This document shows, one piece after another, positions 22,527 through 64,000 of a DNA stretch of 64,000 bases; within the stretch, counting starts at the first letter, position 1, and each line of letters starts with the position of its first letter. The stretch lies in assembly GCA_047967505.1 (NCBI GenBank), contig CM106538.1; one strand, given 5' to 3'. This stretch comes from Dipteris shenzhenensis. Lineage: Eukaryota. The position numbers and the translations under genes are program-made. Below the pieces are notes generated by a model that had not been told where the DNA came from, ran no database searches, and was given only the letters and a program-made list of their open reading frames with translations.

Positions 22527-22529
22527 TTC

Positions 22530-27571: not shown

Positions 27572-30249
27572 TTCTTCGGGTGAACATTGAGGGGGGGTGT
27601 TAGAGTTAGCTCAAATGTCCACCTCTCATGTAACCCACCAATATTCTGTGTACCCAATGTTGTAAGGCCCCCATATGAGGAGAAGCCATGATGGGTATCA
27701 GATATTGGGAGGGATCCCCAGTTTAGACACTGGAAGGGGTCTTAGAGTAGACCAGATGGTTATGAGACGGCTTAGGAGCCAAGAGTAGAGATACCCGTCT
27801 GCACAAAGGGGGGGTTCGGGGGGGCGATAGCCCCCCCGATAGCAGGGGGTCCGGGGGGCGCAGGCCTATGCGCGATCCTTCATCTGCCCGACGGCATGTT
27901 TTCTGAAGGGTCGGTTGGTCTTCCAGGCCGACTGTCTATTAGGCCGACTGCCTATTACAGGGCCGACCGTCAACCACTTACACTATATAAGTGGCCACCC
28001 CCTATCATCAGATCACCAGTTCTTCACGCTCATAGTCCTCCGTCCAGCATCTGTCTAGATCACCATCGAAGCTCTGTCTGTAGAGCGCACGGGTGGACAG
28101 CCAACCATCAGTTGTATCAGCAGTTTGGTATATCAGAATTTTTGTATTCTCTCCAGCTTTCCATCGTGTACTTGCGTTTTGTTGTTATCTTCCGCTGCGT
28201 ACTATTTTCTTACACTTCACAAATCTTGCTCTTTCATGGAGGGGAGTCCTTTCACCTTGTCCTTGCATGCAATCAATTGCGTAGATATAAAGCTAAGACG
28301 CCCATACATTTGATGCCATAAATGAGAGCCTATATGTGCAAGCATGCATGCATTCTGATGAGTGTAAATGAACGTCAATTTGTCAAAGATGCCATCTCTC
28401 AATCCATGTGCAATGACCTCTTTTTGAGTGAGCAAGAGAACCTTCTCATCATAAAAAAAGATCCAAATCTTTTGATCATCACATTGTATGACTGATAGTT
28501 GATTCATGGCAAGTTATGGCACATGAAGCACATCCCAACTGAGATTTATGTTCCCATTTGGAGGTTGAATTGGTATGCCACGAATTCCTTTGACTAGAAG
28601 TGAATGATTGTCTCCTAAATGAACATCTGGATCTCCCTTGACTAGATCAAGTGCCTTGAACCAATCTCATCTACAACACGTGTTGTGATGCACCAAAATC
28701 CACTATCCACATGTCTCAATGAGTTTTCATTGATGTGACAAAATATAATGAGGGGAGAGGAGAAGAGTGGAGATGAGGAGAGAGGGCACGGCTAGAGAGC
28801 ACACCACAAATGACTAGTTGTACACTAATTTAGTTGAAAATGTAGAATATATACAAACCCATTTAGGATTAGGGTTAGGGCATCTAACCCTTTCCTATAT
28901 AGCACTCTAGTGCTATGCACATATGATCACATGATGTTGAGCATGATCTCTGAACACCTTCCCTCAAAATTAACATCATGAAGTAGGCCTTCCCTCAAGA
29001 TGATGATTCTAGGGAATCGAAGAAAGACTGAACATTACATTCCATCACACCCCTTTAATGGGTATGTCCTTCCTCTGCGTCAAACCAAGAGCTTGTCGGT
29101 GTTTCTCGAAAAGCTCTTTACCGAGTCATTTGGTAAAGATGTCTGTGACATTCTCTTTGCTATCACAATGCTACAGTGTGATGTCACTAAAGTGACACTC
29201 TTTCTCTGATGAAGTGCTCTCTGACATCAATGTGCTTTGTCGTGGAGTGATATATTGGATTCTTGGCCAATGATTGAGCCGATTGATTATCACAATATAT
29301 TGTTGTTGGCTTTGACTCATCAAAGTAATCTATTTCTGACAATAGTCTTCTGAGCCATATAGCCTCACATGCACCTGTAGTGAGTGCTCTATATTCTACT
29401 TATGTCGAAGACAAAGAAACAGTTGTCTGTTTGTTTGACAACCATGATATAGCACCTTGACCAAGGAAAAATGCATATCCTTGTGTTGATCTCTTGCTCT
29501 CATGATCTCTGGCATAGTCACTGTCACAGTATCCATGCAACCTTGGATGACTGCCTCTGTATTCTATTCCAAACTATCTTGTACCTCTAATGTATCTCAA
29601 GACTCTTTTGGCTTTATGCCAATGAGACTGTTTTGGATTTGCCATAAACTGTGCTAGTAAGTATACTACATAACAAATATCTAGCCTTGTGATAGTCAAA
29701 TATCACTACAAGGCATAGGCCATTTTCCGACAAAAATACCGACGCTTTTTACATTAAATTTTTTTTTTTCACGGGCACAAACGTCGCTATAAGAGTCGCT
29801 AAAAGCATCAAAAAAGAACCGTCGCTATATAGCGACATTGGTAAACGGCGCTATATAGCGACACTGGTAAACGTCGCTATATAGTGACATTGTTAATCGT
29901 CGCTATATAGAGACACTGGTAAATGTTGCTATATAACGACAATTAACATAACTTAGAAAAAAGGGTTAGTGGGCTAAACAGGACTTGCTATGGCCCTGTT
30001 TAGCCCCAGTAATCCTTTTTTTTTTGGTAATTATAAAACAAAGTTTCTTTATAACAAAATTTCCCTTGCGAAAAGGGTGATACAAAATCGCTCTTGTGAA
30101 ATGATGAGCAACAAAAGCATGTACATGTCGGACATATACAACATTGTTTGTAACAAAATTACCATTTTGAAAGGGCGATACAAAATTGCTCAAATATACA
30201 AAATGACATACAGGGCGAAGAAAATGCTACTACCACTACTACTCATCTG

Positions 30250-34758: not shown

Positions 34759-37700
34759 ATGGAAGGGACAAGTGGAAGCTCATCCGATGATGCGCCAATG
34801 CCCGGGAGCATGAAGTGGCTTATGGAGAGGTTATACTGTCATTGCACTCATTGCAAGAGAGAAGTATGACATCAACGTCGTATTATCATGTGCCACTTGC
34901 GGATGTATGGGGAGGAGCCGGAACCAGTACCCACCGTTGGTGTTGCACGTGTTGATGGACCATCGGTAAGTCAAAGCTATTTAAGTTCACAGTCTTATTG
35001 TATACCAAGAAATAGAAGATCTTATATTTACACGAAATCTTAAAACAGGATGAGGAGGGTGATGAGGGTATGCATATACCTTCTCACTTTCAGCAAGGCT
35101 ATAGTCTCCCGGATGATGGATTCCATTTTTAGGGGCACTACATCCCACATACACGTGATGTCAGAGTCTGAGGTCAAAATGTGAGAGTTGCAATCAACAC
35201 AATTGTACGAGGGTGCTAGGATGTCTAAACTACATGCTTGTCTCTCAATCTTGAATCTACAAGTAAAGTATGGGTGGTCAGATACAAGTGTCTCGGCCTT
35301 AATGAGGTTAGCTCTTGCATTAATTTGACTCATTATTTGGATATTGTTTGTTTTGAGAATCATCATTTGGATAGTGTATACTGAATCATCATTGTTGGAA
35401 GACTATGTATGTTTTGAATTGTCATAGGTTGCTCCAGAAGATGTTGCCTGCACCAAATACCATGCCCGCATCAAGAGATGAAGCAAAAAAGATGCTAACA
35501 ACAGTGGGTATGGATTATGATACCATCCATGCTTGCCGTAATGATTGTATTCTCTTTCATCGTGAGCATGGAGATTTGGCTAGTTGTCCAAAGTGTGGGG
35601 AACAACGATATAGAGATGACTTGCAGGGTGAGCGGACACTGGTAAAGGTCTTGAGACACTTTCCCATCATTGCAAGAATACAACACATGTTCCGATGCAA
35701 ATCCATAGCAGAGTTGATGACATGGCATGCATCTCATCGATCCACTGATGACACATTGAGGATTCCCACAGATTGTGTAGCTTGGAAGCACATAGATAAT
35801 CAGTGGCCGGACTTTGCGAGGGAGCCATGCAACTTACATCTTGGGCTAGCCATGGACGGCATGAATCCTTTCGGGTTACGCTCGACATCTTGGTCGACAT
35901 GGCCCATAGTTGTGGTGAATTACAATATCCCACCATGGCTAACAATAAAAAAGACACCTCATTCTTGCACTACTTGTGCCAGGAAAGTACAAGGCAAAAA
36001 ACATGGACGTGTACATGGCACCTTTGATAGAGGAGTTACAGATATTATGGAGAGGAGTGCATGTCTTTGATATTTCCTGAGCTCCTAGACATACCAATGA
36101 TATTTTGATCAGGGGTATCTTGATGTGGACCATGCATGACTACCCAGGATATGGAGAATGCGCGGTACATGGTTGTGTCTTTACATGTACAATGAGAGAT
36201 TATGCTTTTTTGACTCTCTTTCGCATGCATGTCTTGTACTAACACATTCATGCACGCGTGCAGGACTTGTTACAAGTGGGTACCATGCTTATCCTATTTG
36301 TGGACCCGCTCTGAAATCGCTTGCATGCTACTTCAAACATATGAGGAAAAATGTTTATGAAGGTCATGCTTGATACCTTCCGCTCGACCATCTCGCACGT
36401 GGAGGTCAGCTTGATCCACCACCATCATATTTGAAGGCAAGTGACTGGATTCAAGCTTGGAGGGTGAATGGAGAGGAACCTCCTCCTGGTATGAAGAGGC
36501 TATCGATCTTTCACGAGCTTCCTTATTGGGGTCAGTTACAAATCAATCATCTCTTGGATCCCATGCATATCTTCAAGAATGTGGGGGCTACTGTTTGGGC
36601 ACACTTGGTTGGTTCCAAGGACTCGAGAGGAGTGCGAGAAGACTTGCGTGCTATGAATAGGATGTCTCGTTTGTGGCCCCAAGTGCATGCTTCGAGAAAA
36701 GTTGTCCTCCCGAAAGCAATGTGGATCCTCTCTACGAGGGAGGAGGCAGCGGTCACAAGGCAGACATTGCCTCTTTTCAAACACCGACAGGGTACATGTG
36801 TTGCTTGAAAGGAGCATTTTCAAAGGACAATAAGCTTAGTGGGCTCAAGTCCCATGATTGGCACAAGGTCTTACAAGTATTCTAAGTAGAATTAGTGTAC
36901 TGATAATCGTGATGCGTTAGCATAATTATTATTATGTTATATTGTTGACATGACTTCATTGTTGCTTTGATAGTTCATCCTCCCAATTACAATAAAAATT
37001 ACAATAAAAGGGTGCTTACAAGAAGATGTTAGAAATGATATATTTAAGATCTGTGGTATTGTGAGGTATGCTTACTATCAAATCACATTATGTATTTTCT
37101 TCAATTTAAGCTGATTAATCTGTAGACTGATTATGAAAAAAACTTACATGGACATGTGAAATAGGTGGGTATCTCAAAAAGAGATCTCTATATCGAGCAT
37201 CGAGAAGGTTAGGGTGGAATCCATTGAAGCCATATGCTTGCTTGAGAAGCACTTTCCCTCGAGCATTATGACAACTCAAGTCCACTTGCTTGTGCACATA
37301 GTTGATGAGGTGGCTATAGCAGGTACCGTTCATAGTCGATGGATGTTTTTTCTCGAGCAGTTTATGAAAACTTTAAAGGGATTTGTAAGACAAAGAGCAA
37401 GACCAGAAGCAAGCATGGTAGAGGAATGGCTTGTGCAAGAGTCATTAGTATATATCACATAGTTTCTTGCATCCACGGATCCCGATATGTTGTAAGCTTG
37501 GCACAACAAGGATGATGATGGCATCGTTGGCGAAGTTCCCCAAGGAAAAGGGATTGAAAGAAAGATGAGCGAAGAGCAAATGGAGAAATTCAATAATTTT
37601 GTATCCTCAATAGCCCTGAGATGCAAAAGTGGATTGAGAGATATGAAGTGGCCAAAGCAGAAAGAATAAATGCAAGGATGACATTCATAGTAATGTACAG

Positions 37701-45439: not shown

Positions 45440-48313
45440 AATTTAGCACATAGTGCTAGAGAAATACTTAGTGAGAAGCATCTTCTGAATTAGTATTGGG
45501 TAGAAGCAATAGTCAACTACTTGCTTAATTGGCTTCCAACCAAACTGATTTAGGGTATGACACCTTATGAAGCATTCATTGGAGACAAGCCATGCATTGG
45601 ACATCTATGCCTATTTGGTTGCATAGCATATTCCCACATACATGATGACCATCGCAAGAAGTTGGATGAGAAGTCACGTAAATGCATCAAGGTTGGCTAC
45701 AGTGATCCCATCAACCAAAAGGTAATTATCTCTATAGATGTAATCTTTGATTAGGAATCAGAATGGAAAACCTCAAATACACAGGTAATAGATGCAGTGT
45801 TTACTCAATCATCTACAAAAAGGTTTGATGAAGAAGAGTAATAATTGCCACAAGCAGCTCAAGAAGAGCCAAAGCAACTCAAAAAGTCTACTAGGGAAAG
45901 CAACCATCATGGATACAAAAGAGCCAGTGTACTTTGAAGACATATTTGACAAGCTAGAATCATAAATAGCTATGAATGAAGAAATGGAGGCTTTGTACAA
46001 GAATAATACTTGGGAATTATGCAACCTTCCACCTGGAAAGAAGTCCATAGTAAACAAATGGGTATACAAAGTGAAGTATAGTTTAGATGGAAGTATTGAA
46101 AGATACAAAGCCAGAGACTAGTTGCAAAAGTATTTGCACATCAATATGATCAAGACTATGATGAGACTTATGCTCCTGTAGCAAACATGGACTCCATACG
46201 GTTCTTGATATCACTAGCAGTACTCTCAGCAAATAGAAAGTGTACTAGCTCAATGTCAAGAATGCTTTTCTCAATGGTTACCTAGACAAGGAAGTTTACA
46301 TGCAACAACCAACAGGTTATGTTGAACTAGGAAGAGAGAATTAGATTTTCCATCTCAAGAGAAGTCTCTATGGCTTAAAGCAAGCACCCAAAAGTTGGTC
46401 CAATAGAATCATCAAGTATTTTGCTAATTTGGGGTACGTGCAATTTCAATGCAGATCATACTCTCTACTATAGAGTTCAAGGGGAAGACATTACTATTAC
46501 ACTTTTGTACATAGATTATCTGATAGTGATCAGAAGAAATGATAGCTTCATCAAAACATTGAAACAAGAATTATCTATAGAGTTTGACATGAAAGATCTT
46601 GGACTTCTGCACTATTGTCTTGGAATTGAGTTCTGGAGAGATTCTGGTAGCACCTTCATGAGTTAGCTGAAATATGTTGGCAGTCTCCTAAAGAAGTTTC
46701 ATATGGCAGATTGCGAGGTTGCATCCACTCCCTTAGAATAGAGTTTGAAACTTAAAAAATATTTAGAAAACCCTATTTTCAATGAAAGGTACTATTGGCA
46801 ACTCATCGGATCTCTTATATATCTAACTATCACATGGCCAGATATCTATTATGCAGTAAGTTAAGTTGCACAGTTTATGGCAAATCTAAAATAGTCTCAA
46901 TGAAATGCAGCCAAAAAGAGTCTTGAGATACATCAGATATACAAGGCAGTTTGGAATAAAATACAAAGGAATTCATCCAAGGTTGCATGGATACTATGAC
47001 AGTGACTATGCCAAAGATCTTGAGACCAGGAGATTCACGTAGGAATATGCATTTTTCCTTGGTCAAGGTGCTATATCATGGTTGGTAAACAAGCACCACT
47101 TGTTTCTTTTTCTTCATTTGAAGAAAAATATTGGGCACTCACTACAGGTGCATGTGAGGCTATATGTCTCAGAAGACTATTGTCAGAAACATATTACTTT
47201 GATGAATTAAAGCCAAAAACAATATACTATGATAATCAATCACCTCAAGCATTGGCCAAGAATCCAATACATGACTCCAAGACCAAGCACATTAATGTTA
47301 GAGAGCACTTCTTCAGAGAATGAGTGTTACTTGGTGACATCACACTGCATCATTGTGATAGCAAAGAGAATGTTGCACACATCTTTACCAAACAACTTGG
47401 CAAAGAGCTTTTTGACAAGCACTGACAAGCTCTTGGTTAGACTCAGAGGAAGTACATTCCCTTTAAAGGGGTGTGATGGAATATGGGGGATTTACTCTTA
47501 GTACTTGGGGGACGTCACCTGCATGTATGAACTTCAAGAAAATCCCCTATATACAGTCCATGTAGCATAACAAAATACCCCTATTTAAGCTTATAAGGAT
47601 ACCACCAAAATTGCACTATGCCCCTCCTTCCTTAAATCTATGTTCTTTCTCAATTATTTGGACCATCTTCAAATATTCACCAATGGGTATTATTTATTTG
47701 TTTCCTACCATGGCCTAAAATTAGCTATAGCTCAGGCTTAGTTCATGTGCAATTGGTACATGACTGATTGTCACTAGTCAAATGTGCATGTCTATGTACC
47801 TTTTATGTTTAGGGGGTAAAAACTTGTATTTCCCTATACCCCTCCCTCTTCTTCTCCAAAGATGTCAAGGCCCCCTAACTTAAATTTAAGATTGAGAAAA
47901 ATTTAAAAGGGCCCCCACCCCTAATGTATAAGCTTATGTCTCATCTCAAAAAAAACCCCTATTGTACACTCATGTGATATCATAAGTTTCCCCTTGTGAA
48001 TCCCTCGGGGATGGAATGTAATGCTTAGTTCTTTCATCATCTTGAGGGAAGGCCTACTTCATGATGTTTATCTTGAGGGATGGTGTTGAGAAACCATGCT
48101 CAACATAATGTGATCATATGTGCATAGCACTAACCCAATAGAGTGCTATAAAAGAAAGAGTTAGATGCCCTAACCCAAACCCTAAAAGGGTTTGTATATA
48201 TTCTAAATTTTCAACTAAATCTAGTGTACAGTTAGTCATTTGTGGTGTGCTCTCTAGCTGTGCCCTCTCTACTCGTCTCCACTCTTTCCCTCCCCCCTCT
48301 TCATATTTTGTTA
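45440..48313 (+). mobile_element. Copia family C copy C3 (integrase C-terminus, RT, RNase H, PPT, 3' LTR 48084-48313), heavily decayed
   Basis: Homologous to C1/C2 in coding region and LTR; TTGAGGGATGG before TGTTGAG. Confidence 0.9.
47485..48006. mobile_element. ~520-bp MITE-like insertion in the 3' UTR of C3
   Basis: Absent from C2; flanked by duplicated GATGGAAT; ends GGGGGATTTAC / GTGAATCCCTC are imperfect inverted repeats. Confidence 0.55.
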
Positions 48314-48464
48314 GGCATCGAGGGCAAATTTGGTAGAAATCGTCATTCGATGTTGGAGAAAGAGAGAGAGAAGAGTGAAACACAAAATTTCTCCCATAAG
48401 TAGTGAGTGTATCCATGCATCATAGACATATATATAGTTAAGAACTAGGTTGAGTTAGGGAGAA

Positions 48465-49019
48465 CTATAGATAGCTATAACAACATATTGTGATGAACCA
48501 TTCAAAAACTTCAACAAGACAAAAAATGAGACTTGTGTTATCCTGATACCTATCTCTTACTACCTTGAAACTAGTCACCATCTCAACCCGCTCTTGCTTT
48601 TTCCTTGGAAGAACCGTAGTTATGAAGTGTAGAATCAAATAAGATTTTATGGGTCTCATCTTTTCTGGCAATTCTCTATAAAGTTCTTGCGAGTTGCCCA
48701 CATGCTTTCCATATGTTACTCACTTTTATCAGCATCTCTGAAGTAGAGCTAGTATTTTGAAGAGCACCTTGATCATTGTTGAGTCTTTTAGACTCAATCA
48801 AATATATGTTCTCACTCTTGAAGATGCATATTATTGTAGAGTATTGGAATTGGGGTATCCTATAGAAGATATCCCTCATAAATCTTTTCTATTTGAGTGC
48901 CTCTCTGGCAAGTTCCTTGCAAGCATATGCACAGTGATGACCATCTATAGGATCAACTACACATTGGAGTAAGAAATCTCTCCTTACACTTTCAATATGG
49001 GCCCTTGTTCGCCAATATC
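48465..49019 (-). pseudogene. Exon of a ParB/Sulfiredoxin-like protein gene (left paralogue)
   Basis: Manual translation after a CCTAG acceptor: YWRTRAHIESVRRDFLLQCVVDPIDGHHCAYACKELAREALK*KRFMRDIFYRIPQFQYSTIICIFKSENIYLIESKRLNN. Confidence 0.55.
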
Positions 49020-49440
49020 TAGGGTTAAGGATTTAGGGCTTAGGATTTAAGATTTAGTGTTTAGGGTTTTGGGTTTATGATTATGGTTTTAGGGTTTAAG
49101 GCTAAGGATTTAGGATTTAGGGTTTAGGGTTTAAGATCTAGGGTTTAGGTTTTAGGGTTTAGGGTTAAGGATTTAGGATTTAGCATTTAGCGTTTAGGGT
49201 TTATGATTATTGTTTTAAGGTTTAGGTTTTAGGGTTTAGGGTTTAGGGTTTAGTATATAAGGTCATGAGCTTAGAGTGTAGAATCTAGGGTTTAGGATCT
49301 GGAAATTAGGTTTTAGAATTTAAGCTATAGGGGTTAGGGTTTAAGGTTTAGGGTTTAGGGAACTGTTAGATAAGTTTAAGAGCTTAGATTGTATAACCTA
49401 AGATTTAGGGAACTTCAGGATTTAAGATTTAGGGTGTAAG
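49020..49440 (+). repeat. Degenerate interstitial plant telomeric (TTTAGGG)n array
   Basis: Dozens of TTTAGGG/TTTAGGA/TTTAAGG units. Confidence 0.93.
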
Positions 49441-49692
49441 ATTTAAAGTATATAGACTATATAAAATATGCATTCCAAAAGATTTAGTTTAGATATATAT
49501 AGACTATATATTATATGCTTTCCAAAGTGTTTTGTTTATATCCAATACTAAGTATGATCCTTTGCAAAGGCTTTACTTTAAGTAATTATAAGTCTACCTA
49601 GTCAAAGTATCCTACTGATTAGGGACAAGCACATAGGCTAAAAGCACACCGATTCATATTTTCTTACATTCATGCTGCAAGGTGTATCAGAA

Positions 49693-49848
49693 GAAATGAA
49701 GAAGTATGTGATAAGAAATATTCAGAAGAAATATGTATTCCATATCATGGATTCATACCATGGATATCTAAGAAATGAAGAAGTATGTGATAAGAAATAT
49801 TCAGAAGAAATATGTATTCCATATCATGGACTCATACCATGGATATCT
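49693..49848. repeat. Two ~78-bp tandem copies
   Basis: GAAATGAAGAAGTATGTGATAAG...ACCATGGATATCT duplicated nearly perfectly. Confidence 0.9.
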
Positions 49849-51825
49849 GGTGGTTGCTAAAGTAGAAAAATGATATGGATTCAATGATATTGTAGTTTTG
49901 TGCAAAGCCTTAAACAAAGTTTAAGGCTTTTGCAAAGTATTACATACTCTAACAAAGATAAGCAAGTATGCTAAACCTCTTCCAGATTCTATGGTTTTAA
50001 ATACATACCTTACAAATACATTATCTAATTCTTTATATTTCGACTAACAAGTATTATACACATGGAAGAAAAGCATACATGCTTTTCTTCCATGTGTGTA
50101 AAATTTAATATTTCCTTATTTTTAAAATTGTTTCATTCTTTGATTGACTACTTTTTAAAATTTAAAGGTTATTACTATATATTATACATAATTTTAAATA
50201 TTATTAATGTATAATATTAATAATTTATATATTTTTATTTAAATTTATATAATAATTATATTATATTTATATTAGTTTTTAAGTTAATAATGTATATTTT
50301 TATTAAAACTAAAATTTAATATCTAATTAATAGCAAGAAGAATATTATAGAGATTTTTCATACTAAGAACTACCTTACAAATACATTTACTAATTCTTTA
50401 TTGTTTGAAGAATGAGAATTATATAAAGCACATATACTAGAAGACCTCCCTTTCAAAAATATTTTCATTATTATATTTTTTAAATTAATGTATTTATATA
50501 ATATTTATAGATTAACAATATATATTTTTAGCAAAATTCTATTTTAACATTAGTTAATAAAAGTTTATTATATTATGGAGTAAAAATATTATAAATGGAT
50601 TTCTCATATTAATAAAGTGTTGTGAGAAGAGTTTTTTGAGAGATTTATGGTTAAATTTTATTTTGAAGTTGTTGCATACGCAATAGGTAGGGAGGTTTGA
50701 GTGGTTTTGAGGTTGAGAGAGAAATTTGTAATAGATTGTTTTCTAATTTATTTTTTTGGAGAAATTATTATGTGCCCAATAGGTTGGGAGAGTTTCAATT
50801 TGAGAGAAATTTGTGACAATAGGTTGTGAGAGTTTAAGGTAAAGAGGGAAATTCGTGGGAAAAAAGATTTAATGCAAAAGATGGTTTTTTGAAGTTGTTG
50901 CATACACAATAGGTTTTTGAGAAAAGAATCAGATTTGAAAAAAAAGTCAATTTTACAAAAACTTGATTCTTATAAGTTATTGCATACGCAATAGGTTGGA
51001 AATGAACTCACCCCTTGCAACATTTTGAAAATTTTGAGAATCCTGCAACAGGTTGATGAGAGGAGAAAAGTATGTAGTGTGAAAGAATGAATTTTGAATG
51101 AAAGAGAGGATGAAGAACGTTCTACTTATAGTAAATCTAAAAGAACTAAAAGACCTAAAAAACTAAAAAAAGCTAACTTACCTAAAAAAGCTGACTTGAC
51201 CGAAAAGCTACCCATTTCCTATAAAACTCTACTTCTCCTCATTCTCTCTCTCACAACTTTCCCCGAGCTCCTCCACCACCTCCCCACCCAGGTACTCCTT
51301 CCCTCCCTTCCCCTCTCCTCCCTTCCCACCCTTCTCCCCTCCTCCTACTTCCCATCCCCTCTCCTCCTACTCCCCTCCCTTCCCCTCTCCTCCCGCTTCC
51401 CCCTCCCCTCTTCTCCTGCTTGCCCCCTTCAATTGCGAATCCTCTCCTTCCCTCCCTTTCCCCTTCGCTCCTTTTTTTTTTTGTCCTTTTTTTTTTGGAT
51501 GTGGGGAGGCGGGGAGCAGAGAGGCAAAGGGCATTTTTTTTATGGGGAGTGGGGAGGCGGGGACCGGTTTGGGGGAGGAGAGGCAGAGGCGAAGGCGGGG
51601 AGGCAGAGGAGAGGACAGAGGTGGGACACAGGAGGCATGAGGCGAAGGTGGGGAGAGGAAGGCGTGATGGGGGAGGCGAAGGCGAGGAGGGGGGATGCGA
51701 ATGCGGGGAGGCGGGAGGGGGGAAGCGAGAGGCGAAGGCGGGAAGGGGGGAGGCGAAGGTGGGGAGGTGAGAGGGACGAGGCGAGGAAGCGAGGAGGGGG
51801 GAGGCGGGGAGGAGAGGAGGGAGGA

Positions 51826-51958
51826 GAGGGGATTAACCCCCCCTAACCTGCTGCGCGCACAACAGGTTAGGGGGAGTTAATCCCCTCCCCTAAGGACCCA
51901 AGGGCCCCTGTCGCGCGTGCAACAGGGGGCCGTTCGGGCCTTAGGGGAGGGGATTAAC
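51826..51958. other. Two overlapping GC-rich inverted repeats
   Basis: 51826-51850 pairs with 51863-51887 (24/25); 51876-51895 pairs with 51939-51958 (20/20). Confidence 0.9.
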
Positions 51959-52679
51959 CCTCCCTTAAGTGGGGGCCCTTTGGGACTCCCACAAAAAAAA
52001 AGGACGACGAAAAAAATAAATTAAATTAAATTTTAAATAAATAAATAAAATTTTAAAAATTAATTAAATTAATTAAAAAAAAAATCAAATAAAATAAAAT
52101 ATATTAAGATTAAATAAATCAATAAAATTAAAAAATTTTCAAAATTTTTTATTTTTAAAAAATGACCAAAAAAAATTCAATTTTAAATAAATAAATAAAT
52201 TTAAATAATTTAAATAAATAAAATCAAATAAAGTAAATAAAAAATAAATAAATTTAATTTCATTTAATTTAAAAATAGAAAAAATTATATTATATTATAT
52301 CTATATAAAATTAAAAAAAAGTAAAAATAAATAAATAAATAAAATTTTAAAAAAGTAAATTAAATAAAAATTAAAAAAATCAAACAAAATTTTAGAAAAT
52401 TTAAATTAATTTTTTTATCTATGTTTATAAAATATTTTGAATTAAATTATTTATGTAAAAAATATTAGATAAAAAAATAATATCTAGAAATATAAATATA
52501 TATTTTTAAAAATATATTTGAACTTTTAAAATTTCAATAAAATATAGTTGAAGTTTTGAAATTTTAACTAATTTTTAATTTTTAATACTTAAATATTTAA
52601 TTAGCAAATGTTTTAATATTTTGAGTTTGGAAATCATTGTAATCGTCATTTTTTGTTTTTGATTACTTTGCAGAAAACT

Positions 52680-55600
52680 ATGGCTTCGAGTTTTGGTTCC
52701 AAGGTGTCTTTCAAATATCTTGAACATGCTTGGTATTTTATGGAGCACAAATCAAAGTATTTGTTGGTGATCTTACTATCGAGAATGTGTCAAGCGTGAA
52801 ATATTCTCCAGAGGCAGTACAAAATGGTGGCATGGTCTCAACCATCAACATTAAAGAAAACAATTTGATAGAAGTTGTGTACAAAGGGAAGAATGACAAT
52901 GTGGTCTACAAGTTACGAGTTATGCACAAGCACTTCTTGAAGCCCTTACCAGATTCAATTGAGGGATCCCAAGAATTACTTAGTGCCTTGGAAGCATTGA
53001 AGAAAACGTGGGATGCATTTTCGAGTGGTGGTATTTTACCTTCAATAGCAGTAAGTATGCCATCTATAATATGTAGCCCTCAAGTTGTACCACCAATATC
53101 TGTGGTGATAACTACAGCTACATCTCCTGCAAGAGTAACTACAATATCTCCAACTGTACCTACACCATCGACTACTAGAACTATAGGAACAAGAAGGAGT
53201 GATCATGGAGTAGATTCAAGTTCCACAGCTATTCTTAGAAAGAGAGCCAAAATAACTCCTACTCCACGTGCAGATCGTTCAAGTGTAGGTTATTTAAAAC
53301 CAGGCAAAAAATTGGATAGTGATGATCAGGAGGATCCGCAAGAAGAAGATACAAGTCTCATAGACTTTTCTATAAGTGTGGCAGCAGACTTACATCCTCC
53401 AGAGGATGAGGGGTACATTTGGGGATTTTCACAATTCAGCATGGCCACAATGCTTATCGGTTGAGCTTCATTGTTCACAAATCAAAGAAAGCTAGATAAG
53501 ACATTTGCACACAAATTGTATGAAGATACGAGGAAAACAAGAACTCCAATTGCCACTAATTATATCACTCTTCATCCTATGGCATTTAAGAGACTTCAAG
53601 AAGATGATCCTACATTGCCTGATGTCACATTTCAAAAGCGCATGGTCTTTCATGATGCTTTTGAGAACTTTAGAAGGAGTGACTTTGTTCGTGAAGAGGC
53701 TTTGTACCAAAGCCGGTATGGGACTGACACTCGGGGGGGTCACTCATCATATGTAACCCTATCACGTGAGTTCAATAGAAGGATTTTTTTTATTTCTAAA
53801 ATTTACAGAAATAAATATACATAAGGGACTATTTAAAATAGTTTTGGAAAAAAATTACAGATTTGTATAGAAAAGGGGTATATTTTATTAATAAAATTTT
53901 TTACAGATAAGGGACTTTAAATATAGGCCTTGAACGCACGTGATATAGAGGGTTTATACATAGTGACCCCCCCGACATCAAGAAGAGATACATGCCGGCA
54001 AAGAATAGATTCCTGGAAAGATGCAGGTTTGAGCCCATTAATGGGCAACACTTTTGTGAAGCTTGCAAGATCGCCCTTGATGAGGGAAGAAAAGGAAACT
54101 TGCCACAGATTGAATGGATGGAAAAGTTTCAACGGGTCATTTGTCATGTATGCATATTGAACAATGGCTTGAAGTACATTTTAGAATCAAAAAGGCTGGC
54201 TTTATCATGAAGATCTTGGTTCTTCCTTTGAAGATCCTGCATAGAGTTATGCACTACAACAATGGTGCTATTTCCTAAATGTGCTAGCATCTCTACTTGG
54301 GCTCTGCGCATCTCACTTGCTTGCATAGCCACATTGACTGAGCATTGTTTAACCAATTGCAATAACCAAGCAACCTCGCATGTCCATTTCCAATAAACCA
54401 AACTAGCTCATGCTCCACATCAACTCCTTGATAAGACATGGGCTAGAAAGTGGTTGGCTTCAATGGATGCAGATTCCACACCAATAAAGGATCTAAGAGC
54501 TAAAATGCCAAAGGTTGTTGAGATAGAATATATGGACATCAAGAAAAAGGCCTTGTAGTCCATTGCCCAATGTAGAGCAATTGGTGGTTTAGATGATGGT
54601 TCTCCATTTAGCTTATCCTATGATATCTTACTATTAGAGAATGATACAAATTTTGCACACATCAATGGCATTGATACAGAGCATTTCATAGCAATGAGTG
54701 GTCATGCTTGGGAGAAGCCATGTGTATTTCATAGATGAATTGCAAGACCTTGCAGTGTCACGGATAGTTGAACTTGTGAGGTTTATCATACAAGGTCCTA
54801 TGGCAGATAAGAAAAGATCAACGTTGGTCCTGTTCATAATAGAATCACAAAGGGATGCCTTGTATTCGAGTTTGACATGTGCATTTGGGTATTTACTTCA
54901 AAAGTATACCATGGTATAGTCCTATGCAACCATATGACTATCTTGGAAGGCACTGCCATTCAAGTCTTGCAACCTTTCTTGATGTGCTTCTTATCCAGGG
55001 GTGGTGGCAATCTAATCGAAATTCATTTAAGGACTCTCGAGCTTCATTACTTTGAGGACAATAAGGTTAAGCTTGATGCAGCAGCAATGGTGGATTATAG
55101 AAAGCCGATGCATCCTACTGTGATACTAAAGATGACAAAGAATTTACTATATGATGGGTGGGAAGTAGCATTGTATCCAATGGGTTTTACTGCTGCTGAG
55201 AAATTTCTATGCTAAGTAGAAATGTAAATGTCATTAATACCCCCCATCAGATTGAGTTCTTTGACACATATTACAGTTGCACTACCTTCTTTGAAGAGGA
55301 AAATGTCAAAGAAGAGAGTAGTGAGGAAAATGTCAAAGACGAGGGTAGTGAGTCTGAGAGTGATGATTCTAGCTCAAGTGATGAAGAGGATGAAAGCTCT
55401 GAATCCAATGACTTATTCCAAGAAGAAATCCGCACAAATAATAAGGATGATCAATTGTCAACTAGAGTCAAGGAGGTTCCGCTCATTATACGAGAAGGCC
55501 CGCGGTAGCAAGAAGTAGTAGTACAGCACGTCATAGGAAAAGGTAAGGCTAAAGAGGTGGAAACACTTCCCTTGAAATTAAAAGTGAGGAAGGCACCCTT

Positions 55601-55937
55601 GATCTTGGGTGAAGGACATGCAAGTGGATCAAGCAAGGAAAGCAAAGCATGACCAGCCAGAGGAGTTACCAGGAGGCATAGATGGTTCTTCAACCATGAC
55701 CTTACAAACTCTAGAAACTCTAGAGCAGCCTACTAGTCAGGTGCTTGGAACTGAAGAGCAAACTATTGAGGACCTTGCTATAAGACTCCAGTCTTAGAGT
55801 AGCCTATTAGTCAGGATCTTGGTAGTCAAGGGCGCATTGAGGACATTGGTACTGTCTTAAAGTAGCCTATTAGTTAGGACCCTAGTAGTCAAGGGCTTGG
55901 CATTGAGGACATTGGTATTGAGGAACATGATGGCTGA
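52680..55937 (+). pseudogene. Large decayed multidomain gene (right paralogue): small beta-rich N-domain, S/T/P linker, ParB-like domain, possible degenerate methyltransferase-like fold, acidic tail
   Basis: TTTGCAG acceptor then ATG at 52680; ORFs 52730-53464, 53471-53780, AT-rich intron to 53906, 53992-54210 (FLERCRFEPINGQHFCEACK..YILESKRL), mostly open frames on to 55937. Confidence 0.6.
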
Positions 55938-56139
55938 CGGCTTTGTAATCACAAGTTTTGGACATCGCAAGTTTTGAACTTCTACGTAAAGCGAATATCT
56001 AATAAAAAGTTTACTTTTTTGATTTCTTTACTCTCATTATTGTGTATAAAGATTGTTTATGAGGTCCATTTTATACTTAATGGTGTATTTTAAACTTTAT
56101 GTCCATATATTTTTATAGTTAAGGGTGTTTTTTAATACC

Positions 56140-56380
56140 AAGTGAGGTGTATATGTACACCACTTACACATAAAAGGATTTATGTACACTACCTTTCTAA
56201 GGGGTTTATGTACACCACCTTTCTAAAAGAAATGGTCATAAAGGTGTGTGCACACCACTTATACATAAAGGTGTTTATTTACACCACCTTTTTAAGAGAA
56301 TTGGCTATTTATTGATGTTCTTAAGGTGATAGTAGCTCAATTCATAAGAAGTTATAAAGATGTTTATGTAGACCACTTTG
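56140..56380. repeat. ~6 short repeats of T(G/T)TA(C/G)AC(C/T)AC(C/T)T, each preceded by AGGTGT/AGGATT-like sequence
   Basis: Copies at ~56153, 56183, 56209, 56249, 56279, 56368. Confidence 0.7.
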
Positions 56381-56589
56381 AAAGAGATTTGGTTATGCAT
56401 TGATGTTCTCAGTACTTAACGACCAAATCTTTTGTTTTGAGTTGTCAAATCTAGTTCAAAAAACAACATTACTAGTATATTCAAAAATTTTGGACTGTTT
56501 TGTAGTCCATTTCTCAAATTGAACTTTGCACGAGTCCAAAATTTTTGAATAGTGTGTTCTTTTTTTTTGAGAAGGTAGAAATGGCAATG

Positions 56590-59500
56590 GAAGTAGTGCA
56601 ATAAGGCACATGGACGATCAAGAACCGACCCCTCTCTGTCTAGATGTGGGAACCTTCATTCAATCTAGACTCACCTCCGCCTACCAACGCGCCCATTTGT
56701 GTAGAGTTTCTAGACCTGCCCATGTCAATCTTTCCTCAGTTGGAAGCGCTTTGCCTCCCTCTTGGCCAGTTTTTAGGATTAGAAATGAAGAGATTCATAA
56801 GTCTTAGAAAAAATCCACTAGCCTATTTCCTTATGGACTTGTCTATAGATACTCCCAATGCCATCTGATTACTTGATGGTGACGGGTCTGAACTAATACA
56901 AAAGGTGTTCTACAAGAATATCCCAAACTCATGTTTTCTATGTGGTTTGGGCGGACACTTTATAAAAGACTGCCTTGCCCGCAACAGTCATGTGGTAAAG
57001 AGAAGCAAGCTGAGAAGAGTAAGGAGCCAGAGACACCGGAAAATACAAGGGTAGACGATCCAACTCCTCCACAGGAAGAGAAACAGAACCAGGTTAAAGA
57101 GAGTCGGGTAGAGATAGAAAAGAAAGGTAAACAAATAGAGGAAGAGAGGACCAATGGAGAGATCATGGAAGATAGCTTAGGAGAATAGGATTTTGTCCCC
57201 AACACATAGGATTTTGAAGCTCAATTAGAGCAAGCCGAACACAAAGCCATCTCACAGGATGAATAACCTTTCACCATTGTGAAGGGGAAAAGAACAATCC
57301 AAATTGAAAAAAAAAAAGGATAGCTCCCACCTAGATAACCCAACCAAGAAGAGCTTAGCAGAAAGAGAAAAGAGGAGGTTGTCTAGAGGCTTTAAGTTAT
57401 CTCCACAAATGAGCCTGATCAATTTCAAAAAGTTGAGGAATAAAAGCTCCACCCAATGATGAGTCAAAAAAAATTTATGTCTCTTAGTAAATGTTCAAGG
57501 GTTAACAAATGACTTGAAGCCCCTAGTTTTCAAGAGATGGTTGAGGACAAACAAGCTTTCCCTCAACTTCTTAGCTCTCCAAGAAGTCAAAGTTGGAGGA
57601 GCGAATCTTATCTAGCATCTAAAGCAAATCGATGACAAGAGAAGCTGGTTCACAATAGTCATGATGAAGGGAGAGGAGGTGCATTCATAGGTGTTGCAAA
57701 TCACCTAGTTCAAGGGGTAGCAAGAGTTTTACCGATTTGTGGCAAATTCGGGATTGGGGGTGGAATTTGTCATCCTAATCTCTCATGCCAGGTCTTCTTG
57801 GTGTATGCTCCAAATCAGGCTAGAGAGAGCAGAGCTCTTCTATGGGGAATCGTTCGCTTTGCAGACAATGTGCTTCTACTTTGAGACTTTAATATGGTTA
57901 AGAGTAGATTAGATAGGTGGGAAATAATAGGCAGTGTGATAAGAGGCCATGAAATGAATACGTGGATGCACCTCAAAGAAAGGGAAGAGCTGGTGGACAT
58001 ATCAAAAGAAACTACCTTTACTTGGACAAATAACCAGGTAAGACACCTCCATAGAAAAGGGCATTTGAATAGAGCATATTGCTTCAAGAGAATAGTTGAG
58101 GAGATGCTTTGTGTTAAGAGTAGAGCACTGGATACCCTCCCCTTCTTGGATCACAAACCCATTTTCATAGTCCTAGAAAAGGAAGAAATGATCATTGGTC
58201 GCTCTTGGTTTAAGGCCAATCCTTTCTTTTTTCAACTCTTGTACGTTAGGAATAAGATAGATAAAATCTGGCACAATGCCTTTGGGGGCTCAGCTAATCC
58301 AATAGATAAATGGATTAGAGCCATGGCTAGGACCAAAATTTTCTTACAAGAAATCAAGTGTAGAGCTGACAAAGCTAGGTCTCTTAGAACACAAAAGCTT
58401 GAAGATCATCTGGCTCTCCTTGAGCATGACAACACTGATCACAGTCAGAGGAAAATGAGGACACTCAGAGCTAAACTCAGAATAGAAGCAGAAATAGTAG
58501 CCAACCAGGCAAGGATTTACACACAGGATTAGTGGGAAAGAAGAGAAAATAAGGGTAATGAGGATATGTTGAAAAGCCTGAGGAAAAAACACACTAAAGA
58601 ATACCTAGAGGCTCTTCAAGTCGAAGATAGCCGCATTCAAGACCCGGTTGAAATTCTTGAGGTGATCTCATAACACTTTAACCAATTGCTAGGAGAGGAG
58701 GAAATCATCAGAATAGAAAAGGCTATAGCTCAAGGGAAATGTTGTAAAGTTAGAGAAAGAAAAGTCTCCTCTTTTGATAGCAATTATCTAGATAGAAACC
58801 TCACCTTAGAGGAACTAAAAGGTGTAGTAGATCAAAGGGGGAAGGTAAGACACTAGGAGAAGATGGCCTCCCTATAGAGTTTTATCATGTCTTTTGGGAA
58901 ACGGTAGGCCCCTATCTCATGTTGCTCTGGCAAGATTTCAAAGAGAAAGGGTTTTTAGACCCAAGAATAAACACAAGTATGATAAAACTTATCCCTAAGG
59001 GTGGACTAAAAGAGGAATTAAAGGACTAGAGGCCGTTGACCATGCTGAATTGCAACTATGAGATCTTTGCAAAGGCGCTTGCTTATTAAACTTAAAACCA
59101 AGATGCAATGCTAGATAAGGGAGGATAAAAGGGGGTTCATTCAAGGAAGACATATCCTTGAAGAAATTCTCACCTTGTGGGAAGGACTTGAACTGGCTGA
59201 GGAGACTCAGCAGGACATATGCTTCCTCAAAATAGACTTTGACAAAGCCTATCATAGAATGCAATGGGGTTTTATCTTGTCCTCCCTCAAAGAGATGGGA
59301 GTTGGTTAGATCTTATGTAGAAATTCTACTATGTCAAGCTAGAAGGTTGAAGAAAATGGTAGAATGACACAACCTTTTGGGCTTAAAAGATCAATCAGAC
59401 AAGGTTGCCTGCTAGCTCCTCTACTCTTTGCTATAGTTGCAGATGCACTAGGATGTCTTGTTAAGGATGAACTAGACAAGGGTCAAGTAAAAGGAATTCA

Positions 59501-60824: not shown

Positions 60825-63800
60825 TCACAGTGGTATCTCCGGAAATGGGTAAGGTGGCATGGGCCCTGTATATGGTCGGAGACGAAATCCATTTACCGGC
60901 TTCTGCAACAGCTCCCCCTGTAGTGTTCCTAATCGGAACGTGCCGTCACCATAACGCTCCACCACCCAATACGGACCTCCCCACCGTAACTTCAGCTTAC
61001 CCGGATGCGGACCCATCCGAGTGTTAAACAATATCACGGCATCTCTCCGTTTGAAGGTCTTCTTCTTTGAATGACGGTCCACCCAGACCTTCCGTCTGTC
61101 CTGGACTACCTGTGCAAGATACGCACTGTTGAACCGCTCCTCACCCAGCCGATCCAGCTGCTCAATCCTCCGGTGTACGGACTCGTCCCAGCCCAATTTC
61201 TCTGCCGCTGCAATCCGCAGACTCGGTACTAGGAATTCCATGGGGACCACTGCTTCAACTCCGTAAACCAACTTGAATGGCGTGAACCCCGTCGCAACCT
61301 TATAGGAAGTCCGGAACGCCCATAATGCGGAGTAAAGTTTTTCATCCCAATCTGTCCGATTTTCATTGACCAGCTTTTTCAGAATGACTAGCAACACCTT
61401 ATTCGAGGACTCCGCCTGTCCGTTTGCCTGAGGGTAATACACTGTGGACTTCTTATGAATGATTAGGTGCCGGGTAACCAGTTCCCGTAACAGCGCATTA
61501 AGGAAATGCCCACCTTGATCTGTGACGAGCTCAACCGGACATCCGTACCGTGTCATAATGGCTTCATAAAGGAATCTGGCCACAGCCTTTGCCGAATTAT
61601 CCTTCAGTGCTCTGGCCTCCACCCATTTGGTACAGTAATCCGTCGCCACCAGGATATACCGGTTACCTGTCCTCCGCGCCGGCGGCGAAAACGGACCTAC
61701 AAAGTCCAGCCCCCACTTCATGAACGGTTCGAGGGCCAGTATGGGATTATGCGGCATCCGGTCCCGACCTGATGGCTGGCCCAACCTCTGGCACACATCG
61801 CATCTTTTGACGAACCTATGCGCATCCCCCATTAATGTTGGCCACCACAGACCTCCTTGGAGTACCTTCCGTCCGGTTACTTCTCCTGCGAAGTGTCCAC
61901 CGCTGATTCCTTGGTGAGCCTCTTCCAGGATGACCTCCTGCTCATGTGGGTACACACACCGTCGCAACACACCATCTAGCCCCTGCTTATACAATTGGTC
62001 AGCAATGATCCGGAAGTCTCTGCTCTTGAGCGCGAGCCGTTTCCGCTGGTCTCGCGACATTCCGTCGCGCATCTGGCCCGTGTCGACAAAGTGAAACATG
62101 TCATCGTACCACGTCTTTGGAGCTGCCGGTACCACCGCCTCCAGTTCGAACAGCTGGGCATCCGAAAAATCGTCTTCCACACCCATCGGGTCTTCGCCAG
62201 ATTCCAACCGCGAAAGGTAATCCGCTACGGCATGTGTACTTCCTGGTCGATGGACCACCGTGAAGTCGAACTCCTGTAAAAGCAGCATCCACCGGGCCAA
62301 CTTTCCAGTGAGCTCGGGCTTGTGTACCAAATACAACAAGGCGGAATGATCCACATGAAACGTGAACCGATTCCCCAACAGGTAGTGACGAAACTTTGTT
62401 ACGGAATAAATCATCCCCAATGCTTCCCGCTCCGTCGTAGAGTAATTCCGTTCGGCTTTTGACAACCTGCGACTTGCATAATACACCGGTCGGAACCACT
62501 TGCTTGTCGCTTCCTGCATGAGGACACTACCAATAGCCACGTCCGAGGCATCCACGAAGACATGAAACATCTTCGTCCAATCTGGCGGCTGAACCACCGG
62601 TGCTGTCGCCAACATCAGTTTGAGCCGTCGAAAAGCTAAGTCACAAGCAGGAGACCAGACTACCGGTACTTTGTTGAGTTGGTCATACAGTGGTGTCGCC
62701 ACATCCGCCAGATACCGTAGCATTCGGCTGTGCCATTTAACCTGCCCTAGGAATCTCACGAGCTGCTTACCGTTGCCAGGAACCTTGGCCTGCCGAATCG
62801 CTTCGACCTTCGCCGGATCTACCGCAATGCCTTCCGCCGAGATAATGCAACCCAGCAGCATACCGCTGCCCACGGCGAATGCACATTTCATAGGGTTCAG
62901 ACACAACCGTGCCTCCCTACACCGGGTTAAGCATTTCTTCAGATGCTCAAGGTGCTGCTTGCGACTCTTGAAAACACTGAAATCGTCCAGAAATACCTGC
63001 ATAAAGATTAGTAAATAATCATCAAATATTTCTTGGACCATGCGTTGAAATGTTGCCGGAGCATTCTTTAGCCCAAATGCCATCACCAGGAAAACAAATG
63101 CTCCCTTCTCCGTGATGAAGGCTGTTTTCTCTCGATCTTCTGGTGCCATCTGCACCTGGTTATACCCACTGAAGCCATCCAGAAAAGAATACATCTCGTG
63201 ACCTGCCACTGTATCCAGCATAGTATCATTAAACGGCAAGGGAAACGGATTCGTGATTGTCGCCGCGTTAAGCTTTCTGTAGTCAACACAGACCCGCAAC
63301 TTCAAATTCTTTTTCGGAACAATCACTATTGGCGAAAGCCACGTTGCACGGTCAACCGGATAGATAAACCCGACCTTTAGCAACCTGTCCAGCTCCTCCT
63401 TCACCCTCTGGGCATAGTTCGGGTTCATTCTATACCGTTGTTGCCGAACCGGTATCGCATCCTTCTGCAGATTGATCCTGTGCTGATAGAATTTGGGATC
63501 GATGCCGAGCAAATCTGTGTAGTCCCAGGCGAACACGTCTTTGAAGGATTTCAGCAATGTCTCCAATTTTCCCCGAAATCCTTTATCGAGCTTCGCACTA
63601 ACACGGACGTTCTTTGGCTCCTCCTCCGTCTCGAGGTTAAGATCCAGCAGCTCGTCTTCTTTGACCCTCCGTGAGCGACGGAGTTCCTGCTCGAAAACTC
63701 TTTCCGCCTCCGCCACTCCCGCTTCGTCCGGCATGTCTCCTGTGCCTTCCGGTAGACTCCCTTCGACTGGTTCTTTCGTGGAACTGGATGACTCCTGCGT

Positions 63801-64000
63801 AGCCGAGGGAATCTGATGCTGATATTGCTTTAAAACGGCAACCACATCGACCTCGAACAAGCTTACCAGCTCCGTATTCCTACTGAAGTAGTCATCCTCC
63901 TCTTCGACCCCCATTCCGTCCATCATATGGATACCTTCTGCCATCGTCGGTCGGAATGGTGTCCTCAGCCCTTGTTTGGTATGTACCGAGAGCTTCAGCT
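60825..64000 (-). CDS. Intact Ty3/Gypsy pol (RT-RNase H-integrase), non-chromovirus; runs off the window
   Basis: 1039-aa ORF: WLSPIVIVPKK, LRVCVDYRKLN, FLDGFSGYNQ, VFLDDF, VDASDVAIG, H..GGH..C..C, WGLDFVGP, TDQGGHF, QANGQAE, WGGPY; no chromodomain, no second RNase H. Confidence 0.97.
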   Translation of the reverse strand, partial: LKLSVHTKQGLRTPFRPTMAEGIHMMDGMGVEEEDDYFSRNTELVSLFEVDVVAVLKQYQHQIPSATQESSSSTKEPVEGSLPEGTGDMPDEAGVAEAERVFEQELRRSRRVKEDELLDLNLETEEEPKNVRVSAKLDKGFRGKLETLLKSFKDVFAWDYTDLLGIDPKFYQHRINLQKDAIPVRQQRYRMNPNYAQRVKEELDRLLKVGFIYPVDRATWLSPIVIVPKKNLKLRVCVDYRKLNAATITNPFPLPFNDTMLDTVAGHEMYSFLDGFSGYNQVQMAPEDREKTAFITEKGAFVFLVMAFGLKNAPATFQRMVQEIFDDYLLIFMQVFLDDFSVFKSRKQHLEHLKKCLTRCREARLCLNPMKCAFAVGSGMLLGCIISAEGIAVDPAKVEAIRQAKVPGNGKQLVRFLGQVKWHSRMLRYLADVATPLYDQLNKVPVVWSPACDLAFRRLKLMLATAPVVQPPDWTKMFHVFVDASDVAIGSVLMQEATSKWFRPVYYASRRLSKAERNYSTTEREALGMIYSVTKFRHYLLGNRFTFHVDHSALLYLVHKPELTGKLARWMLLLQEFDFTVVHRPGSTHAVADYLSRLESGEDPMGVEDDFSDAQLFELEAVVPAAPKTWYDDMFHFVDTGQMRDGMSRDQRKRLALKSRDFRIIADQLYKQGLDGVLRRCVYPHEQEVILEEAHQGISGGHFAGEVTGRKVLQGGLWWPTLMGDAHRFVKRCDVCQRLGQPSGRDRMPHNPILALEPFMKWGLDFVGPFSPPARRTGNRYILVATDYCTKWVEARALKDNSAKAVARFLYEAIMTRYGCPVELVTDQGGHFLNALLRELVTRHLIIHKKSTVYYPQANGQAESSNKVLLVILKKLVNENRTDWDEKLYSALWAFRTSYKVATGFTPFKLVYGVEAVVPMEFLVPSLRIAAAEKLGWDESVHRRIEQLDRLGEERFNSAYLAQVVQDRRKVWVDRHSKKKTFKRRDAVILFNTRMGPHPGKLKLRWGGPYWVVERYGDGTFRLGTLQGELLQKPVNGFRLRPYTGPMPPYPFPEIPL

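Follow-up and report, generated by a model that had tools for sequence, protein, structure and literature searches.

The 64,000-nucleotide stretch of plant DNA analyzed here (contig CM106538.1 of Dipteris shenzhenensis; hereafter the window) carries, between positions 48465 and 55937, the remnants of two protein-coding sequences on opposite strands, which an initial annotation had described as a divergent pair of intron-containing genes of the ParB/sulfiredoxin (Srx) type. Both coding regions are real relatives of one another and do face away from each other, but the left one amounts to only about 100 residues and the right one is a single long pseudogene (Table 1). The peptides by which the pair had been recognized lie where they were reported: on the minus strand the left motif occupies 48931-48951 and its ESKRL string 48781-48795, and on the plus strand the right motif occupies 54034-54054 and its ESKRL string 54184-54198. 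Counting from the D or N of DG/NG as far as the E in ESKRL gives 50 codons on the left and 48 on the right, as had been stated.

The right copy is a nearly full-length pseudogene with one putative intron. Its first recognizable exon was matched in tblastn by the database fragments P0008 (E=7e-23) and P0016 (E=1e-23) at about 50% identity, and the string NQRKLDKTFAHKLYED, which had been reported upstream of the right motif, is present there in the frame of 53465-53824. A putative intron with GT at 53716-17 and AG at 53962-63 would give a phase-2 junction, which supports the phase-2 AG acceptor that had been proposed on this side as part of a plausible GT..AG intron. The predicted junction keeps the 13-residue spacing from Ser-Arg to NRFLE of P0008 and gives an equal count after the aligned Asn-Gln in P0019, and P0008, P0019 and P0006 run straight across it without the 248-nucleotide insert; these read-through fragments may derive from RNA or from intron-less DNA. 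From these comparisons an intron is plausible here, with the choice of donor and acceptor being inferred. The exon that follows was matched by P0019 (E=8e-27, 61% identity), P0022 (E=2e-18) and P0008 (E=5e-14). Over the next roughly 190 bases after YILESKRL (54208-54399) similarity is lost, and no family member gave a tblastn match there.

Further downstream, the reading frame of the right copy is broken repeatedly. A TAG at 54556-54558 occupies the position of a Gln in P0004, and three frameshifts, near 54733, 54900 and 55213, are flanked by matches whose coordinates abut or overlap in the DNA. Each is bridged by contiguous homologues, the first by P0011, the second by P0003, P0005 and P0018, and the third by P0003 and P0007. 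In-frame stops number at least four (54208, 54229, 54394 and 54556); because of these stops and the frameshifts that contiguous homologues bridge, the right copy must be regarded as a pseudogene. Its terminal stop at 55506-55508 falls approximately at the end of P0003. The right copy has a coding capacity of no fewer than about 590 residues, and of about 840 with an upstream frame of 246 codons counted in. One TGA parts that frame from the FTNQRKL exon, and it may belong to the right-copy gene; P0008 and P0016 both begin at FTNQRKL. The product of the upstream frame begins with a beta-rich part, continues with a middle rich in Ser, Thr and Pro and then has basic stretches followed by acidic ones, and it matched no Pfam family and no homologue among proteins of 135-431 amino acids.

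The left copy is a short relic, smaller than had been described. It was matched by P0006 (E=1.3e-11, over 48975-48700), P0019 (E=2.3e-10) and P0020 (E=7e-8). The stop codon that had been said to split its frame was confirmed as a TAG at 48886-48888, the one in-frame stop of the relic, which parts the open reading frames 48889-49032 and 48676-48888 within a single frame of the minus strand. Neither an upstream exon nor a downstream family region was found near the relic by tblastn with family members at E<=1, and the phase-2 acceptor proposed for the left exon is therefore without support. A degenerate telomere-type array adjoins the relic directly upstream on its sense strand and bounds its 5' side. 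At most about 370 bases downstream of the relic lies a Copia-related repeat (46819-48311) that recurs at 28738-29703 and 20259-20469.

Table 1. Features of the 48465-55937 interval and of its surroundings in the window.
Feature	Coordinates	Strand	Evidence or remarks
CACTA tnp2 transposase fragment	35375-36070	+	E=4e-24
Left relic, about 100 residues, motif block to W..CG block	48679-48984	-	tblastn with family members
Left Cys/His motif, CVVDPIDGHHCAYAC	48919-48963	-	C-x9-H-C-x3-C variant
Degenerate plant-type telomere repeat array, interstitial	49020-49360		tandem repeat scan; unit TAGGGTT (TTTAGGG type), 48.7 copies, 69% matches
Stop-free frame of 246 codons upstream of right copy	52724-53461	+	open reading frame list; in frame with FTNQRKL exon
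Right copy, overall	53471-55508	+	path of family tblastn matches; four frame changes
Exon FTNQRKL...YQSR, frame 2	53471-53715	+	P0008 and P0016, residues 1-90 versus 53471-53743
Putative intron, 248 nucleotides, GT..AG, phase 2, AT-rich	53716-53963	+	read-through by P0008, P0019 and P0006
Exon with Cys/His motif (54022-54066, CRFEPINGQHFCEAC) and YILESKRL, frame 1	53964-54207	+	family tblastn
Degenerate stretch, stops at 54208, 54229 and 54394	54208-54399	+	read-through translation
Middle region, frame 1	54400-54735	+	P0004 (E=4e-33, 77% identity); also P0012, P0014, P0015 and P0011
ELQDL region, frame 2	54698-54904	+	between the frameshifts near 54733 and 54900
C-terminal conserved region, frame 1	54898-55212	+	P0003 (87% identity); P0005, P0007 and P0010 (34-40%)
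Last conserved block and acidic tail, frame 0, after the frameshift near 55213	55215-55508	+	P0003 residues 172-268 (86% identity); P0007 residues 104-137
LINE-type zinc-knuckle frame, just right of the 48465-55937 pair	56869-57051	+	
Gypsy pol frame, 1057 codons without stop	60828-63998	-	reverse transcriptase, RNase H, integrase zinc domain and integrase core; extends past window end

The read-through translation of the right copy (P0001, with stops as X), when compared with the 64-kb window by tblastn, found the left side at E=0.004 with 22 of 72 identities. All family members from the databases were also compared with the window by tblastn, and they match two loci only, the left and the right copy. 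Because database members match both sides, the left fragment belongs to the family of the right copy, and on these alignments it is a true, diverged member of it. The best matches on the right side were to P0003 at 83-87% identity and to P0019 at 61%, and the left and right copies are each closer to database members than to one another. The earlier view of the two as old paralogues is upheld, with the remnants about 31% identical in the within-window comparison and the left side reached more strongly from other family members (1.3e-11 and 2.3e-10, above). Also upheld is the statement that neither remnant matches the Copia, Gypsy, LINE or CACTA sequences of the window, as judged by self-blastn, family tblastn and Pfam.

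An exhaustive phmmer search of 1,835,955,588 representative proteins gave 13 matches at E<=0.001, all of 70-269 amino acids and with 33-84% identity to the right copy; four further fragments came from a word-based profile search. The 13 matches come from Logan and ENA contigs of 0.6-4.8 kb and from one NCBI record, the hypothetical protein O6H91_10G033900 (KAJ7540859.1, P0006; 177 amino acids) of the lycophyte Diphasiastrum complanatum. This protein shares the motif block NRFLE.C.FEP.D.QH.C and then the Y.LES.RL and W..C blocks with the window copies, its identity being 36-41% with the right copy and 33% with the left; as an annotated fragment it differs from them in lacking the N-terminal exon and the C-terminal regions, and it has no function assigned. 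The family is so far seen only in lycophyte-type plant data, as short diverged fragments. Narrow alignments gave no family relative in viral contigs, in prokaryotic genomes (one per species) or in JGI metagenome contigs, and a search of sequencing runs listed no RNA run and six DNA runs with 5-11% of the query words.

Identity among family members ranges from 33 to 100%, with P0013, P0020 and P0021 mutually 79-85% identical, and these tiers of divergence suggest many paralogues. The fragments overlap in two chains. In the first, P0015 and P0014 overlap P0011, P0011 overlaps P0018 and P0005, and those overlap P0003; in the second, P0008 overlaps P0019 and P0019 overlaps P0013. Since the chains follow the order of the blocks in the window, one long protein is implied. 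A longer form of the family was not found among proteins of 311-2000 amino acids, which by the tool's own statement is weak evidence. The result is a fairly large protein family, of about 600-850 residues, with no annotated full-length member and no known domain, together with a gene model for the right copy; should there be an intact copy, it would be a worthwhile target for folding.

The reading of the conserved motif changes with the family alignment. In an alignment of five rows the residues that never vary are N, R, F, L, E, C, F, E, P, Q, H, C and E, and the conserved core follows the pattern C-x9-H-x-C-x2-C. What had been taken for a nucleotide-binding 'DGQH' box may instead be part of a Cys/His pattern, putatively zinc-binding. 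The GxxR/DGxHR phosphate-binding box of the ParB/Srx superfamily carries a conserved Arg. Eight rows contain the corresponding box (P0008, P0016, P0017, P0019, P0006, P0022 and the right and left copies of the window; six distinct clusters), and the residue after D/N-G/S-Q/H-H is F in six of them, V in one, C in one and Arg in none. The single C belongs to the left copy, where the initial annotation had proposed that TGT was a deaminated Arg codon restoring the ParB-type box. That proposal does not fit the family, whose consensus at this position is Phe; a simpler reading of the left TGT is that it encodes the conserved Cys of the family, for which the right copy also uses TGT, and is shifted by one codon.

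Nor did the sequence comparisons support a ParB/Srx identity. In ParB-type domains, roughly 40 residues separate the QR-like segment from the box; in P0008 the NQRKL segment lies about 100 residues ahead of it. The Pfam models ParBc, DUF262, DndB and Srx matched neither the two read-throughs (E<=1) nor ten fragments (E<=5) nor 14 alignment rows (E<=10). Against PDB sequences, P0001 gave no phmmer match at E<=10, and two family profiles run on 177,635 PDB sequences at E<=10 returned no ParB, Srx or DndB chain, only three and one unrelated matches. AlphaFold2 gave unreliable models both for the motif region (P0019, 11 rows; predicted local distance difference test score (pLDDT) 51.1, predicted template modelling score (pTM) 0.32) and for the C-terminal region (pLDDT 38.5, pTM 0.28). 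Foldseek with the P0019 model, which is too poor to judge the fold by, gave no PDB match at E<=0.001 and no ParB or Srx structure among the matches listed. A very diverged, DndB-like member of the superfamily that had lost the Arg of its DGxHR box would account for the DG-Q/H-H string, for the helix predicted to follow it from residue 47 of P0019 (in a low-confidence model) and for the N-Q-R-K-L string upstream. However, the likeness ends with that short D-G-x-H string and its probable helix, and the defining Arg is absent from all eight rows. Around the box it is Cys and His residues that are conserved, and together with the searches above this makes such an origin very improbable.

A second relationship that we weighed for the motif domain is with bacterial DUF1173 (PF06666), in which case the protein would be a nuclease-fold DNA-binding protein. 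According to PMC3045609, DUF1173 combines an N-terminal Cys/His zinc motif, of the pattern C-x-C-xn-H-x3-5-C, with a domain of PD-(D/E)XK type from which the active-site signature is missing. The family described here resembles it in pairing a Cys/His motif with a nearby domain that has no conserved nuclease signature, and in language-model features: ESM Atlas scored P0006 at 0.90, 0.90 and 0.88 against its best three clusters (203, 203 and 194 of 256 features shared), and 37%, 31% and 19% of the members of these three bacterial clusters carry DUF1173. In both window copies, moreover, E-S-K is placed on a predicted beta-hairpin. These scores are tempered by the statement of ESM Atlas that, of every 100 shuffled proteins, 4 to 10 also score 0.9, and the hidden Markov model PF06666 matched neither P0006 (E<=5) nor any of the 14 rows (E<=10). 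The Lys of E-x-K is present in only two of eight rows, both of them window copies, the other six having ESD, ESM, KSV and, three times, EFV. DUF1173 is also bacterial, about 400 amino acids long and built on another Cys pattern, and no prokaryotic relative was found by tblastn; a distant kinship with it seems to us very improbable. Two further candidates were dropped. An ATPase idea for P0003 had Atlas scores below 0.9 spread over mixed P-loop-type families, with no Walker A visible upstream in P0011, and a GIY-YIG_2 match of P0014 (E=0.12, confined to the tail of the profile) was attributed to chance.

We read both remnants as dead members of a single uncharacterised protein family, neither of which could make protein now. 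The family would be multi-copy and dispersed, and it most probably corresponds to the open reading frame of a repetitive or mobile lycophyte element not described before. The divergent arrangement would have come about by chance, from two separate old copies that lie near each other among decayed transposons, and would not be a functional head-to-head pair. We give this reading, a multi-copy and probably repeat-borne orphan family with two dead copies that are neighbours by accident, a probability of about 0.5. It is favoured by the homology of the two copies, the frameshifts and stops of the right copy, the confinement of database matches to short fragments, the failure to find relatives in viral, prokaryotic-genome or metagenome contigs, the divergence tiers, the one-protein chain, the failure to find a longer form and the Copia, CACTA, LINE and Gypsy surroundings. 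Plant transposons carry accessory open reading frames of no known function, and by analogy the family could be one of these, which it resembles as an orphan, multi-copy, decayed frame in transposon-dense DNA; it differs in that no physical link to transposon ends or enzyme genes was found here. Several points weigh against the proposal. The idea of 'multi-copy in one genome' rests on the two window copies together with database fragments. Both AlphaFold models are unreliable (pLDDT 51 and 38) and yield no fold, and the zinc-binding idea comes from the Cys/His pattern only, the Pfam family zf-TRM13_CCCH being insignificant (E=0.13, and 0.047 in one of 14 rows). Finally, the intron, a possible nuclear-localisation stretch and the acidic tail would suit an ordinary nuclear host gene equally.

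Such a host gene is the most serious alternative. The two copies would then be pseudogenes of a lineage-specific, non-mobile family encoding a nuclear protein, which arose by segmental duplication and decayed. The putative spliceosomal-type intron of the right copy fits this, as do the long disordered Ser/Thr/Pro-rich stretch, the basic stretch and the acidic tail, the annotation of one member as a gene in D. complanatum, and the Pfam scans, which found no transposase, integrase, reverse transcriptase or tnp2 domain in the family. A host family is harder to reconcile with the many tiers of divergence, with two copies that are both dead and lie in a transposon-dense stretch, and with database members that are all short fragments, none having been found at 311-2000 amino acids. 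We rate it less probable than a repeat-borne family. A bolder version of the repeat-borne reading, which we regard as doubtful, would make the family the main protein of an undescribed, lycophyte-restricted element, with C-x9-H-x-C-x2-C and the hairpin forming a new zinc-dependent domain of DNA-binding or nuclease type, perhaps distantly connected to DUF1173 or PD-(D/E)XK. If this were so, the array of telomere-type repeats next to the left relic would be a hint that the element is associated with repeats of this kind. As it stands, the locus carries little biological weight, being an ordinary instance of dead orphan-family copies in transposon-dense plant DNA, and one outcome of the analysis is a corrected reading of the motif, as a Cys/His pattern and not a nucleotide-binding box.

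The initial annotation had put both copies on one repetitive element; between them lie about 4.5 kb of repeats, simple or of low complexity. The part from 49400 to 52700 (about 3.4 kb) consists of tandem repeats and of low-complexity sequence that is AT-rich, CT-rich or GA-rich. The pair is not framed by terminal inverted repeats or long direct repeats, as judged by a repeat scan and self-blastn of the window, and around the right copy the search for inverted and direct repeats gave low-complexity pairs only. In the self-blastn, 48312-56400 matched nothing beyond its own tandem repeats. One of the repeats between the copies is a 79-bp tandem duplication of exact length at 49691-49848, whose units are 98-99% identical. 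Two GC-rich palindromes stand side by side at 51822-51965, with arms of 35 and 40 nucleotides that are 88-89% complementary and a GGGGATTAACCCC-like core; they sit at the end of a block of CT-rich and then GA-rich low-complexity sequence (51250-51850).

The window as a whole is transposon-dense plant DNA. A scan of 46000-58000 with Rfam and a tRNA scan over the whole window found nothing, and the recognizable features are Copia gag, integrase and reverse transcriptase frames, a CACTA tnp2 frame, a LINE-type zinc-knuckle frame and an open Gypsy pol frame, the last of which may belong to a young or intact element. Self-blastn revealed many internal repeats at 85-99% identity. Among them, the Copia-type segments 5-1797, 8697-10484, 20512-22528 and 7307-9313 are 92-93% identical to one another and occur in both orientations, a degree of identity that suggests nested or recently amplified copies.

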